Part shown: piece after piece, positions 41,024 through 53,756 of the stretch
Numbering within the stretch: the stretch's first letter is position 1
How the letters are laid out: the number at the start of each line of letters is the position of its first letter
Assembly (NCBI GenBank): GCA_949283125.1
Contig: CASDRK010000011.1
Coordinates: 23,363 to 87,362 of the forward strand
From: an uncultured Clostridia bacterium
GTDB lineage: Bacteria; Bacillota; Clostridia; Christensenellales; Borkfalkiaceae
DNA: 64,000 nucleotides
Direction: 5' to 3'
Translations under genes and position numbers: made by a program
The notes under the pieces: generated by a model
Databases searched by the model: none
What the model was told of the DNA's origin: nothing
Seen by the model: the letters and a program-made list of their open reading frames with translations, nothing else

Positions 41024-43060
41024 ATGAGCAAACTTACCCTTAAGCGCTTAGCGCTGTGGCTTCTCGCGCCGGCAATGATATTTGCTTGCGCGTGCAACAC
41101 GACCGGTTCGGATTCCGGCGACGCCGGCGATGACGACGATCAGCATCAGACGCCCGGCGGCGATGACACCCCCGGCGGCGATGACACCCCCGGCGGCGGC
41201 GATGACACCCCCGGCGGCGGCGACGACGATGATCCCTGGGCCGACGAGGATGTCTACACAGACCTCAGCGTGCGCGACGCTACCGGCACGCACGGCGCGG
41301 TGGCTTCGGCCAACGCGTATGCCAGCAAGGCGGGCTACGACATACTGCGCGCGGGCGGCAACGCTTTCGACGCGGCCGTGGCCGTCGGCTTTGCGATCGG
41401 CGTCACCGAACCTTATGCTTCCGGTGTGGGCGGAGGCGGCGTAATGACCGCGTACAACGCGACTACCGGCGAATATGTGTTCTATAACTTCAGGGAATTC
41501 ATTCCCGCGCTGGGCACCTACGAAAATTATTACAACGCGGTGGGCACCGACGTGCCCACGACGGGCATCTACTCCACGGGCGTTCCCACCGAGGTCGCCG
41601 GCCTGTGCGCCATAAACGAAGACTTCGGCAACCTCACCCTTGCGGAGTGCATGGAACCCGCCATCAAGCTGGCCGAAGAGGGCTTCACCATCGAGGCGAC
41701 TCTGGCCGACAACATCAACATAGGCACATTCCTCGACTACGGTCTGGACGAGACGGTGGAGACCTTCTCCTATAACGGCGAGGGCATCGAACCTCTGGGC
41801 GTGGGCGATACGCTCGTGCAGGAGGACTACGCCAAGGTTCTTCGCGAAATAGCCGAAAACGGCGCTGCCGGCTTCTACACCGGCTGGGTGGCTCAGGCCA
41901 TAGTGGCCGCTTCCGAGGCCAACGACGGCTTCATCACGCAGGCCGACCTTTCGTATGCGATGAACAACTACCCCAAGAAGGGCAAGCCCATCTACACCTC
42001 GTACAACGGCTACGACATCTACACGGCCAACACCCCTTCTTCGGGCGGCATAATTCTGGCCGAATCGCTCAACATGATCTCGCACTACTGCGAAAAGAAC
42101 AACACCACGCTGGCCGAAATAGGCCTCAACACCGACGAATACATTCACATCGTCGGCACGGCCCTTCAGCTCAGCTATGCGGACAAGCGTCACTACATAG
42201 CCGACAACTCCGTAAATCCCGCAACCGGGCAGCCCTTCGTGGACGTCCCCATCGACGGCCTTGCAAACAAGGAATACGCGGCGCAGCGTTTCGACACGTT
42301 CTATGATCCCGACGACACCATACGTCTCACCTCGTCCTACGACTGGGGCGGCGCTTCGGGCGACAAGTCTCCCTTCGAGTATCAGGACGCGGCCGCGACT
42401 GCCGAATACGGCATAGACGTGCACGAGGACGACAACGGCACCACGACCTTCTCCATAGCGGACAGCGAGGGCAACATCGTCTCCATCACGCAGACTCTCA
42501 ACCACTTCTGGGGCGACTACATCGTGCCCGAAGGCTGCGGCTTCTTCCTCAACGACCAGCTCACCAGCTTCTCCGTAAAGGAAAACGCCGAACAGAGCGT
42601 GCACTACATCGCTCCCTACAAGCAGCCCGTGTCGCACATAATGCCCACCATAATCCTTAAGGACGGCAAGCCCTTCGCAACGCTCGGTTCCCCGGGCAGC
42701 ATGAGGATATGCTCCGCCGTGCTCGAAACGGTGCTCAACCTCATCGATTTCAACATGGACATTCAGGACGCCATCGAAACGCCCAGGTTCTACAACTACT
42801 GCGTATCCACGGCCGACAGCAACTCCATGTCCGGCGGCGCCACCTACAAGACGCACAAGCTCATCCACACCGAAACGGCTGCGCAGGATGTGCGTGACGC
42901 CCTGTCCGGAAGGAACTACTACGTCTATAACTACAGCTCGCTCAACAACTTCTTCGGCGGCGTTCAGGGCATAACCTTCCAGTACGACCAGTCGGGCAAC
43001 TTCCAGAATCTCAGGGCGGGCGCCGATCCTCGCCGCGACGGCAAGGCGCTGGCTTACTGA
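41024..43060 (+). CDS. ggt: Gamma-glutamyltranspeptidase family lipoprotein, paralog 1
   Basis: 678 aa from MSKLTLK.. (SD AAGGAGG). It has a lipobox ..IFACAC, an acidic repeat linker, a GGT core (..GGNAFDAAVAVGFAIGV.EP..SG.GGGG..) and the autoprocessing site DNGTTTFS. Confidence 0.9.
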   Translation: MSKLTLKRLALWLLAPAMIFACACNTTGSDSGDAGDDDDQHQTPGGDDTPGGDDTPGGGDDTPGGGDDDDPWADEDVYTDLSVRDATGTHGAVASANAYASKAGYDILRAGGNAFDAAVAVGFAIGVTEPYASGVGGGGVMTAYNATTGEYVFYNFREFIPALGTYENYYNAVGTDVPTTGIYSTGVPTEVAGLCAINEDFGNLTLAECMEPAIKLAEEGFTIEATLADNINIGTFLDYGLDETVETFSYNGEGIEPLGVGDTLVQEDYAKVLREIAENGAAGFYTGWVAQAIVAASEANDGFITQADLSYAMNNYPKKGKPIYTSYNGYDIYTANTPSSGGIILAESLNMISHYCEKNNTTLAEIGLNTDEYIHIVGTALQLSYADKRHYIADNSVNPATGQPFVDVPIDGLANKEYAAQRFDTFYDPDDTIRLTSSYDWGGASGDKSPFEYQDAAATAEYGIDVHEDDNGTTTFSIADSEGNIVSITQTLNHFWGDYIVPEGCGFFLNDQLTSFSVKENAEQSVHYIAPYKQPVSHIMPTIILKDGKPFATLGSPGSMRICSAVLETVLNLIDFNMDIQDAIETPRFYNYCVSTADSNSMSGGATYKTHKLIHTETAAQDVRDALSGRNYYVYNYSSLNNFFGGVQGITFQYDQSGNFQNLRAGADPRRDGKALAY

Positions 43061-43061
43061 C

Positions 43062-53200: not shown

Positions 53201-53756
53201 GACGCTGGCCGTGGGCGACGAGGTGCTCATCCTCGGCAAAGTCAGCGGCACGGGCATGACCGTCAGCTCCATAGAGATAGTCTCCACGGGCAAACCCGTG
53301 GTCTGGAGCGAACAGGCCTCCGTCACCGTGAGCAGCGACTCAGAGCTCGAAGCGCTTGCGCAGAACGCGCAGGAAGGCGTGATAATCAAGTTCGTCGGCA
53401 CGGAGGAAAATCCCTTCTTCCTCGGCGGCTCGGGCGAGAGCAGCGGCGGCGACGGGTGCAACTACAAGCTGCACTACAAGAACGACGCCTCCATCGTCGC
53501 AAACGACGGAGTCAAGTACAACGGCAGGAACTTCGTGCTCAAGGGCGGCTCCAACGAGTATCTTCTCGGCGAAAACTGGTGGACGGAGCTCGGCCTTCCC
53601 GCGGGCGGTTTCGTCGGACCCAATTCCGAAAATCCCGCAAACAAATACGGCTACACCGGCACGTTCTATGCGGTGATAACGGGCGCCACGAGTTCGTATT
53701 ATCAGATGATAGTGGTCAACGCTGAAGATTTCAGTCTCGTTCCGCTTCAGGCATAA
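50226..53756 (+). CDS. Giant surface lipoprotein (1176 aa) with four internally repeated OB-fold-like modules
   Basis: Lipobox GAMAC and an acidic DDQ(N/D)P linker. The pattern V.G.V....G(F/L)(I/L)(I/L)(S/T)DG......(V/K)GD.(L/V).(V/I).G recurs at about aa 77, 345, 690 and 935. No catalytic motif recognised. Confidence 0.65.
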   Translation: MKKKHILAILLALGCSAAAAGAMACQTTGDDGGKDQNQGQTDDDQNPDDQDPDDQNPDEPDENSIAGIAKNGKKGTQYTVEGVVYGELSDGYFISDGTGGIFVADDEEVSVGDKLSVTATLSVTRNVPSLTSATAVTVTAQGQTALAPEASSLSYLNSLTAGRANYYKYLTVAGTLSVEDGQYILTEGSDVMAFDERSNTQHLEAWVGRKIDVSVITTGFGTYWEGAFIGDADDVKEHEVNLEAVKDDIFKSFSVPGSVYVSLELPTEYTLEPNVEFTWSVVSGQEVVSINDNVAEVTPGSADTNAVLRLTLTAGEQTATKDYTVIVHPATAVNIADIDDHVNETVMVSGTVLAKGHAQTQYRCGLLITDGNGNNLAVDIDRTDLADYSVGDTVKAVGSYTPAEGGIFAAHFTAIDHVCSEKAPEGYSTDYSALEAVELSSLEDYQAVITDPAGNANKLYKIVMPYMILSGNTSYNFMRFGATEDTAGSGLASSPEGFTGSSNWYFCFAINSLDLTVPEFYDFVNPPFLQDGAAHYEYLTIYAYAMYDGGSTGSSTWQFVIPEESAIVVDYQAYISSKVTEAIGETAVVATEAGTMNIPKEISFTDIDGTVQNIALAWQSSDAAALNPETGAYAAVAANKTVTLTASYKFGGESLQSVIEIDLLARDLEVLTVTQWLTAEEGEVPERFYLEAVVASIGSTSGNSDEQRNGVILTDGINTLWYKTDEYTYGADQTHLAKGDKLRITGAQLTKTGGVQELSGGTYAVVSSGNDIDYSGINLYGSVSSDEELAALAAGMSEPIGGVAVKFSGVFSFVGTGSSNCRYQLNYKDASSSADARYRFGDSTDDIGTWRTFSFSVAGNNYAFPGWYETCGMPEGKSSTCYPVEGTIIAVSCSSGKTMYAWSIIAIDCEPYVPSGDISNILTVSEALDDESGEAVYVQGIVGAFGAQTASGQGDGFQKGLILTDGTNVLLTEDLGDAYRAEEDGAYTIDGQTLAVGDEVLILGKVSGTGMTVSSIEIVSTGKPVVWSEQASVTVSSDSELEALAQNAQEGVIIKFVGTEENPFFLGGSGESSGGDGCNYKLHYKNDASIVANDGVKYNGRNFVLKGGSNEYLLGENWWTELGLPAGGFVGPNSENPANKYGYTGTFYAVITGATSSYYQMIVVNAEDFSLVPLQA

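Follow-up and report, generated by a model that had tools for sequence, protein, structure and literature searches.

A possible hydrolysis-and-uptake arm of a poly-gamma-glutamate system within a methylaspartate fermentation operon of an uncultured Clostridia bacterium

The biology of poly-gamma-glutamate (PGA) is known almost wholly from Bacillus, where the polymer serves as capsule, slime or starvation reserve. Loci combining a PGA synthase with a depolymerase are already known, namely capBCADE of B. anthracis and pgsBCAE-pgdS with ggt of B. subtilis (PMC4497714). In B. subtilis, PGA is a glutamate reserve that is made and then degraded by the endo-acting PgdS and the exo-acting gamma-glutamyltransferase (GGT) (PMC4497714). 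We analysed a block of eight tightly packed genes, separated by short gaps or overlapping, at positions 41024-53756 (+ strand) of a 64,000-nucleotide stretch of DNA from an uncultured Clostridia bacterium (contig CASDRK010000011.1), referred to throughout as the window. The block encodes two GGT-family lipoproteins, a permease with a small membrane peptide, two zinc hydrolases, a lipoprotein with a DUF6305 domain and a large surface lipoprotein, and the genes that a preliminary description of this DNA had listed for it were all recovered at their positions and on the + strand. Its gene content, family memberships, catalytic motifs, topology signals and conserved linkage are established. We put at roughly one in two the probability that a PGA system has in this block its extracytoplasmic arm for hydrolysis and uptake, which in this clade has been spliced into a methylaspartate fermentation operon. 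Most likely, it cuts PGA or other gamma-glutamyl compounds to glutamate and imports the glutamate.

A link between the block and PGA is strongly supported by gene context. A set of PGA synthase genes (56065-59837) begins 2.3 kb 3' of the block on the same strand, with a glutamate racemase of the MurI/RacE type in between (53903-54685, +; TIGR00067, 180 bits, cut-off 147). The set consists of DUF6305b, a second DUF6305 lipoprotein (56065-56742, +; PF19823, 83.5 bits) whose gene overlaps the start of pgsB; PgsB, the ligase subunit of the synthase (56735-58243, +; TIGR04012 equivalog, 310 bits, cut-off 223); PgsC (58240-58689, +; TIGR04011, 107 bits, cut-off 96; PF14102, 109 bits); and the poly-gamma-glutamate system protein TIGR04332 (58671-59837, +; 302 bits, cut-off 100; start codon inferred). 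PgsB and PgsC both scored above the cut-offs of their equivalog models and their genes adjoin, overlapping at 58240-58243, which places them in the PGA synthase family; PgsB was 34% identical to B. anthracis CapB (E = 4e-55). The TIGR04332 protein occupies the position that PgsA/CapA holds in Bacillus. It did not qualify as the PgsA/CapA third component, as BLASTP detected no similarity to CapA, and it had no sequence relative in PDB. These synthase genes were absent from the preliminary description, which took the block to harvest extracellular PGA or gamma-glutamyl peptides. Because the organism encodes PGA synthase in the same gene string, the PGA need not be foreign, and the polymer handled by the block is probably self-made. 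The broader gamma-glutamyl theme proposed there is supported by the flanking racemase, PgsB, PgsC and TIGR04332 genes, and by homologous modules beside pgsB-pgsC-TIGR04332 in 11 of 19 metagenome loci.

These loci come from a scan of metagenome contigs with an alignment of homologues of Zn517, the membrane-anchored zinc hydrolase of the block. The scan returned more than 577 relatives, and the 80 best loci were retained. At 90% nucleotide identity these collapsed into 60 clusters, 19 of them with at least 6 kb on both sides (termed well-flanked). The Zn517 homologues on which the sample rests have identities of 41-51%, with two short contigs reaching 68%. The recurrent order was GGT (one or two copies), DUF6305, permease, small peptide, Zn517-type hydrolase, often a hydrolase of the type of Zn315 (the second zinc enzyme of the block), pgsB, pgsC and TIGR04332, frequently accompanied by a two-component system. 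DUF6305 and a permease beside the Zn517 homologue were each present in all 19 well-flanked loci, a GGT in 18 and a Zn315-type hydrolase after the Zn517 homologue in 12. The pgsB, pgsC and TIGR04332 genes each lay within 10 kb in 11/19, usually adjacent to the module and on its strand, while glutamate mutase or methylaspartase was found in two and the large surface lipoprotein in one. GGT, DUF6305, permease, small peptide and hydrolase form a widespread core whose recurrence is far beyond chance and whose primary, widespread partner is PGA synthase, not fermentation. Clustering of unassigned open reading frames (ORFs) in the 80 loci revealed no conserved partner beyond the query set. Many loci (L021, L022, L024, L026, L055, L057, L075, L077 and L079; L-numbers denote related contigs or metagenome loci compared with the window) contained two successive permease plus Zn517-type sets, often with two GGTs. 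This doubling suggests paralogous sub-modules, possibly differing in stereospecificity or chain-length specificity.

Among closer relatives, several of them uncultured Clostridia of the gut, the whole string was conserved. DUF6305a, the DUF6305 lipoprotein of the block, had few close homologues, and their contigs carried all of the genes in the same order. This 29-kb order was kept in L001/L002, L003, L004 (a metagenome-assembled genome of an uncultured Christensenellaceae), L005, L006 (Candidatus Limihabitans stercoravium), L009 and L011, and L008 (Candidatus Coproplasma excrementipullorum) matched its downstream part; annotation beyond the window used tblastn with window proteins and precomputed Pfam tags. 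The neighbourhood comparison called for in the preliminary description thus came out in favour of a conserved block, kept outside this genome in independent lineages, with proteins 27-83% identical to those of the window, and, as regards its core, in dozens of metagenome loci. L012 read citXG, fumA, fumB, DUF6305b, pgsB, pgsC, TIGR04332, response regulator and histidine kinase, with no block; since it has fermentation and pgs genes alone, the block is a separable module or insertion. The block is not a compositional island, as its GC content (0.59-0.64) equals that of the flanks, and the insertion is seen only by comparison with L012. In L007 the genes for the large lipoprotein, MurI, DUF6305b and PgsB were directly joined, and L011 contained one GGT and no murI. 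Residues ~365-502 of the window PgsB form an Ala/Gly/Arg-rich C-terminal extension of ~140 aa that is present in L001/L008 as well; the PgsB proteins of L003-L007, L011 and L012 are ~370 aa long and lack it.

Block and flanks share one strand, so that the block lies within a 31-kb string joining glutamate fermentation to PGA synthesis. Upstream, at 31305-40995 (+), are the methylaspartate-pathway genes glmS, mutL, glmE, methylaspartate ammonia-lyase (MAL), citD/E/F-like (citramalate) lyase, including citD at 36115-36372 (+), citC and citXG (Pfam, 56-706 bits). The preliminary description had the block directly after this operon. It is in fact inside, because the presumed mesaconase genes, encoding a two-subunit class I fumarase-type hydratase, come downstream (54698-56099, +; PF05681, 372 bits; NF005310 Fe-S hydro-lyase, 258 bits), as does a PduO-type B12 adenosyltransferase (62294-62770, +). 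By Pfam and NCBIfam the pathway gene set is complete, with glutamate mutase S and E, MutL, MAL, hydratase, lyase and B12 adenosyltransferase; we infer from context that the hydratase is a mesaconase rather than a fumarase and the lyase a citramalate rather than a citrate lyase. Modules beside glutamate-mutase genes occurred in at least three layouts: after citXG in the window clade, directly after MAL in L015, and nested in L085 (1929-14080), an unrelated lineage in which the module and pgsB-pgsC-TIGR04332 (+) lie between glmS and mutL-glmE-MAL (-). Such varied arrangements point to more than one origin of the juxtaposition and support a functional link with glutamate catabolism in certain lineages. 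To that extent the proposed connection with glutamate fermentation stands; as the primary partner of the module, fermentation does not, glutamate mutase being near in 2/19 loci.

GGT1 ('type a'; 41024-43060, +; 678 aa) matched PF01019 with 392 bits and TIGR00066 with 358.3 bits, barely above the cut-off of 357.85; the corresponding scores of GGT2 ('type b'; 43062-44894, +; 610 aa) were 412 and 396 bits. The two proteins are 44% identical to each other. As first described, they are tandem GGT-family lipoproteins with an intact TTTF, the first threonine of which (Thr473 in GGT1, Thr421 in GGT2) aligns with residue 1 of solved small subunits. By this alignment both would possess the catalytic and autoprocessing threonine, cleavage itself being predicted. 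The best PDB match of GGT2 was B. licheniformis GGT (4y23, 295 bits), compared with 105 bits for CapD; the pair together scored 267-295 bits against B. licheniformis GGT and 105-119 bits against CapD (3g9k, 29-30% identity), and B. subtilis GGT is, with that of B. licheniformis, the enzyme most similar to both. The block GGTs are therefore not closer to CapD than to GGT. The other trait of the CapD subfamily, encoding together with pgsB and pgsC, was observed in the window and in the 11 well-flanked loci with a nearby synthase. At the 10-residue lid loop of the E. coli enzyme GGT2 aligns gap-free to Bacillus GGT and GGT1 has 3 extra residues, and the lid was absent from all module GGTs examined. 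GGT2 retains the equivalents of E. coli R114, T391, T409, N411, Q430, D433, S462 and G483-G484, with Tyr at S463. At the equivalents of D433, S463 and G484, GGT1 has Ser, His and Ser; these residues are conserved in its orthologues and recur in L011 and L015, in which the GGT1 type is the sole GGT. CapD, aligned from pXO2, likewise lacks the Asp equivalent to D433 and has Asn. These substitutions hint that GGT1 may not require a free N-terminal amino group. Elsewhere, most module GGTs kept the canonical exo-type residues.

The two zinc hydrolases are similar to each other at the motif level only, and were correctly described as one membrane-anchored enzyme and one lipoprotein, both of AstE/AspA type. 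Zn517 (46786-48339, +; 517 aa, M14 fold) matched PF24827 (AstE_AspA_cat) with 30.5 bits and Zn315 (49205-50152, +; 315 aa) with 56 bits, the cut-off being 25. Zn517 contains the motifs HPNE...NRAYPG...DLHE and Zn315 the motifs HGDE...NRSFP...DMHE; the H-x-x-E...H zinc triad and N-R motif of both align with 3cdx and 2qj8, which makes them AstE/AspA members, and 3cdx was the best PDB match of Zn315, with all three motifs aligned. As such members, both are predicted to bind zinc. At E <= 1e-10 the Zn517 family numbers at least 1321 proteins, named, if at all, hypothetical protein or deacylase. H206, E209, N301, R302, H336, E337, E402 and several Arg are invariant in it, and with these extra invariant residues Zn517 forms a large subfamily of its own. 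Basic residues precede its single N-terminal helix, and its catalytic domain is therefore predicted to face outward. AstE/AspA enzymes cleave N-acyl-Glu or N-acyl-Asp, and the C-terminal unit of PGA is N-(gamma-glutamyl)-glutamate; from this family chemistry, exo-activity at the C-terminus would be chemically plausible. In one locus (L093, 3241-5367) a Zn517-type hydrolase is fused to a C-terminal DUF6305 domain in a single 708-aa protein, P0067; since this is a single short contig, the fusion is weak evidence and possibly reflects a lost stop codon.

An AlphaFold 2 (AF2) model of Zn517 had a pLDDT of 89 and a pTM of 0.89. The folds nearest to it were DoeB/EutE, Csd4, several AstE/AspA-family structures, carboxypeptidase T and MpaA, confirming the M14-like fold of this family; there was also a weak Peptidase_M99 match. 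Csd4 and MpaA cut off C-terminal residues linked to gamma-D-Glu. The preliminary description had counted both hydrolases to an enzyme type known to depolymerize PGA. We rejected membership of the PghP family, in view of the missing PF05908 match at E <= 0.01 and a relationship limited to remote fold, and assign them to the AstE/AspA type instead; PghP was absent from the top 50 PDB fold matches of Zn517. A phage origin was also rejected, since there were no significant PHROG matches and no relatives on viral contigs. Residues ~95-190 of Zn517 are an inserted segment of the window clade, missing from shorter homologues in L010 and L011. To judge from alignment lengths, this insert is probably what matched one lobe of amino-acid ABC and Bug-TTT binding proteins in the fold comparison.

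The permease (44908-46611, +; 567 aa) is a DctM/DcuC-like protein of the ion-transporter superfamily, matching PF06808 (DctM) with 57.8 bits, and its C-terminal ~70 aa form an acidic low-complexity tail. NCBIfam TRAP models scored far below their cut-offs (TIGR00786, 25 against 268; TIGR02123, 46 against 321), and the sole PDB sequence match was TRAP DctMQ (E = 0.009). Neither the block nor the related loci annotated with window proteins contained a DctQ or DctP homologue; the permease was thus not assigned to the TRAP family. The start of the gene for the 54-aa two-helix membrane peptide (46608-46772, +) overlaps the permease stop by 4 nt, from which translational coupling of the two is predicted, and the gene was also called in L001, L003, L010 and L093. 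A small hydrophobic ORF lay between permease and hydrolase in 60/64 loci, an upper bound because some of these ORFs are the permease C-terminus read from an internal start. Many are a two-helix peptide ending ...PL(L/I)LR(L/I)L(L/M)IK (e.g. ...PLLLRLLLIK).

DUF6305a (48478-49185, +; 235 aa), previously described as a lipoprotein of unknown family, belongs to the Pfam family DUF6305 (PF19823, 79.5 bits), for which a search of 1.84 billion cluster representatives gave 695 at E <= 1e-3. Its AF2 model comprises a Rossmann-like alpha/beta domain with pLDDT > 90 at residues 60-235. Invariant in the family are G85, Q86, G133, S135, K137, E149, R152, G171, R174, R175, G176, S179, D180 and D202, with T82 and S83 conserved in at least 90% of sequences; many of the invariant side chains are polar or positively charged, as might be expected of a catalytic site or of one that receives an anionic ligand. 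The fusion partners of DUF6305 are all extracytoplasmic (dockerin, Listeria-Bacteroides repeats, aBig_2 and one TctC domain). P0306, of 818 aa, combines TPR, a TctC binding-protein domain and DUF6305. A classical solute-binding protein was considered and rejected, as DUF6305 has no fold relative in PDB at E < 0.03, leaving only a non-classical binder. DUF6305b was encoded directly 5' of pgsB in L001-L009, L011 and L012, and the gene overlap in the window indicates that its translation would be coupled to that of pgsB.

The last gene of the block (50226-53756, +) encodes a multi-domain surface lipoprotein of 1176 aa with an aBig_2 match below threshold and weak OB-fold matches; its orthologues, confined to the window clade and L015, contain clear aBig_2 domains. 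It had no PDB sequence relative, and BLASTP detected no internal repeats. With such weak OB matches and a net charge of -103, a role of its OB-like modules as polyanion binders was unsupported. All block enzymes bear lipobox or anchor signals and are predicted to lie outside the membrane. Lipoproteins were called from a signal peptide plus conservation of the Cys across orthologues, and several -3 positions are non-canonical. The lipobox-type Cys after the signal peptide was kept in orthologues of GGT1, GGT2, Zn315, the 1176-aa protein, DUF6305a and DUF6305b. In the preliminary description, lipoboxes followed by acidic linkers had been taken as signs of one cell-surface assembly. The Cys held up in orthologues, the low-complexity linkers are present but restricted to the window species and its closest relatives, and the assembly reduces to a shared lipoprotein or anchor topology. 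Net charges of GGT1, GGT2, Zn517, DUF6305a, Zn315 and the 1176-aa protein range from -22 to -103, which is surprising for proteins proposed to handle a polyanion.

We propose the following scheme; what the substrates are, which way the permease transports and what the system does for the cell (a glutamate 'bank' and capsule turnover) are matters of interpretation in it. PgsB, PgsC and the TIGR04332 protein would polymerize glutamate to surface or released PGA, with D-Glu provided by MurI. The lid-less GGT lipoproteins on the outer face of the membrane would remove or transfer gamma-glutamyl units at the amino end. GGT2 would be the canonical-looking exo-enzyme. In GGT1 the Asp responsible for holding the free alpha-amino group is missing, as it is in CapD, and internal or anchored chains may be its targets. 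Zn517 and Zn315 would serve as gamma-glutamyl carboxypeptidases on the N-acyl-glutamate C-terminus of PGA. Released glutamate or short oligomers would be taken in by the DctM-like permease with its two-helix peptide, and DUF6305 may be an accessory domain on the extracytoplasmic side, either binding the anionic substrate or acting on it, and serving the hydrolase/permease set as well as the synthase. MurI would convert D-Glu to L-Glu, and the L-Glu would be fermented via glutamate mutase, methylaspartase, mesaconase and citramalate lyase, or re-polymerized. With the block inserted in the fermentation operon, D- and L-glutamate derived from the polymer could thus be racemized and then fermented.

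Several observations weigh against this recovery of glutamate from PGA. Eight of the 19 well-flanked loci had no pgs genes within 10 kb, and a sediment metagenome locus (L010, 8245-17346) contained a minimal module of DUF6305, DcuC-like permease, 54-aa peptide and Zn517-type hydrolase after a Peptidase_C69 dipeptidase, with no GGT or pgs gene in the locus. GGTs also use glutathione and other gamma-glutamyl compounds. Neither zinc hydrolase matched PF05908/PghP at E <= 0.01, the phage PGA hydrolase being only a remote fold match of Zn517 (E = 8e-3, TM 0.18/0.34), and the DUF6305a model had no PDB fold match at E < 0.03 (TM <= 0.32). The strongly acidic surface proteins do not favour simple electrostatic binding of a polyanion. 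In many loci, moreover, the module is apparently co-transcribed with the synthase, which for a purely catabolic module would mean futile cycling, and which fits polymer processing better.

Polymer processing is the main rival, possible but clearly less probable than recovery. CapD-like GGTs would anchor PGA to the wall or release it, the zinc hydrolases would set chain length and the permease would import precursor glutamate, the fermentation genes being neighbours merely through shared glutamate. Besides the frequent apparent operon with pgsB-pgsC-TIGR04332, this is consistent with the position of capD within the capBCADE operon of B. anthracis, with the loss of the Asp433 equivalent in GGT1-type enzymes as in CapD, and with the predicted translational coupling of DUF6305b to pgsB. 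The GGTs are, however, far nearer to Bacillus GGT than to CapD in the scores given above, most module GGTs elsewhere have canonical exo-type residues, and pgs genes are not nearby in 8/19 loci and L010. Repeated nesting in glutamate-mutase clusters also suggests a supply of glutamate to catabolism. The recovery and processing readings are not exclusive; they are compatible.

Two further alternatives are improbable. The first is exogenous harvesting, in which foreign PGA or gamma-glutamyl peptides are scavenged for fermentation and the synthase is functionally separate. The gut holds dietary PGA and folyl-polyglutamates, and outward-facing enzymes with an importer-like permease within a fermentation operon, together with module loci lacking nearby pgs genes, are what such scavenging might look like; yet 11/19 well-flanked loci have the synthase within 10 kb, mostly as a direct neighbour on one strand with the module, pgsB is coupled to a DUF6305 paralogue, and L012 links synthase to fermentation even without the block. 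The second, equally doubtful, is scavenging independent of PGA, directed at glutathione, gamma-Glu dipeptides or murein stem peptides (gamma-D-Glu-mDAP), with MurI converting the released D-Glu. It draws on the presence of Csd4 and MpaA (murein-peptide gamma-D-Glu carboxypeptidases/amidases) among the folds nearest to Zn517, on the weak Peptidase_M99 match, on glutathione-type donor-site residues in GGT2 and on the dipeptidase beside the module in L010. These fold matches are remote (TM 0.25-0.45), however, and the recurrent adjacency of PgsB/PgsC/TIGR04332 and the pgsB-coupled DUF6305 copy would be left unexplained. That the block is no functional unit, its surface proteins being unrelated and brought together by chance or by inheritance within the lineage, as its clade-restricted 1176-aa protein and species-specific acidic linkers might suggest, is very improbable and largely refuted by conservation, given a core order that recurs at about 40-50% identity across 60 non-redundant metagenome loci with differing flanks, tight spacing, and overlapping stops and starts.

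A strong terminator was predicted at 30947-30977, followed by a promoter-like site at 31196-31225, and the next strong + strand terminator only at 62987; an Rfam search of the whole window returned no riboswitch or other known RNA at the gathering threshold. An OmpR-type response regulator and a PAS histidine kinase (59803-62315, +; Pfam matches) follow the TIGR04332 gene, and the same pair lies 3' of TIGR04332 in L008, L011 and L012 and near the module in several metagenome loci. After the PduO adenosyltransferase comes a small acidic lipoprotein with a weak DUF4430 match (63030-63437); in L012 (10020-10945) a DUF4430 protein adjoins an ECF-transporter component, and both proteins may have a part in acquiring cobalamin for glutamate mutase. 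Beside the L010 module, the opposite strand carries genes for FTCD and an amidohydrolase, possibly for histidine-to-glutamate catabolism. Far upstream, positions 9687-21500 of the window are low in GC (0.40-0.50, against ~0.60 elsewhere) and include several large ORFs without a Pfam match, an rve-type transposase/integrase (9687-10784, -) and a Rep ORF2/G2P-like replication protein (11115-12245, -). This stretch is probably an integrated mobile element or prophage remnant, unrelated to the block.

A full-text literature search found nothing on DUF6305, TIGR04332, or PGA together with methylaspartate, and no description of the module; the phrase 'poly-gamma-glutamate system protein' led to one irrelevant paper. 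What is new is the component set (TIGR04332-type synthase, DUF6305, the Zn517 subfamily, and permease with micro-protein), its breadth in uncultured anaerobes, and its insertion into a B12-dependent fermentation operon. The locus and its relatives represent a different genetic solution, found in uncultured anaerobes from gut, sediment and bioreactors and built from a synthase without PgsA, lid-less GGTs, outward zinc hydrolases, permease plus micro-protein and DUF6305, and the gene context supplies a testable functional hypothesis for each family. If the module feeds glutamate fermentation, strict anaerobes would have in PGA a stored fuel, and dietary PGA or gamma-glutamyl compounds would offer a niche substrate in the gut. 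More tentatively, the loci may reflect an undescribed, widespread PGA 'bank' of anaerobes, in which a PgsB/PgsC/TIGR04332 synthase is paired with a recovery machine of DUF6305, AstE/AspA-type carboxypeptidase, permease/micro-protein and lid-less GGTs, wired in some gut Clostridia to B12-dependent fermentation. DUF6305 would then be a new extracytoplasmic binding protein or catalytic partner, the permease, two-helix micro-protein and DUF6305 would in effect form a new tripartite-like uptake system, and extracellular PGA would be an energy and nitrogen reserve beyond its role as capsule. The block enzymes could also serve as tools for tailoring PGA.

Several described systems bear comparison with the block. 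Like TRAP DctPQM and TTT TctABC, it groups the genes for a large permease of the ion-transporter superfamily, a small membrane protein and a lipoprotein outside the cytoplasm, and in one protein DUF6305 occurs fused to a TctC receptor domain; unlike those systems, it has no homologue of DctP, TctC or DctQ, the small partner has 2 helices rather than 4, and DUF6305 is a single ~150-aa domain with no similarity to known binding proteins. The zinc hydrolases resemble AstE/AspA/DoeB, Csd4 and MpaA in their H-x-x-E...H zinc site, their carboxylate-binding N-R motif and their nearest folds, and, as proposed here, in cleaving an N-acyl linkage to free the C-terminal amino acid or dicarboxylate. AstE, AspA and DoeB are, however, cytoplasmic, whereas the window enzymes face outward, and the sequence matches are marginal (30-56 bits). 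Compared with PghP of phage and B. subtilis (PF05908), they are likewise zinc hydrolases of carboxypeptidase-like fold, with a remote fold match for Zn517, but are of the AstE/AspA subfamily, membrane-anchored or lipoproteins, and without phage relatives.

Of the PGA loci, capBCADE of B. anthracis similarly clusters a GGT-family gene with pgsB/pgsC homologues, its enzyme is also lid-less, and CapD and GGT1 both lack the Asp equivalent to E. coli D433. In contrast, the block GGTs are nearer to housekeeping Bacillus GGT than to CapD, the window has no CapA or CapE but a TIGR04332 protein dissimilar to CapA, and it adds permease, small peptide, DUF6305 and zinc hydrolases, embedded in a fermentation operon. 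PGA, GGT and racemase of B. subtilis, reportedly treated by Kimura et al. in 2004, offer the other comparison: pgsBCAE-pgdS with ggt shares with the window the logic of synthase plus depolymerase, an exo-acting, lid-less GGT (predicted here) and a racemase. The window differs in having AstE/AspA-type zinc enzymes and no NlpC/P60 PgdS, in the physical joining of degradative genes and transporter to the locus, and in a product that, as proposed, would feed anaerobic methylaspartate fermentation.

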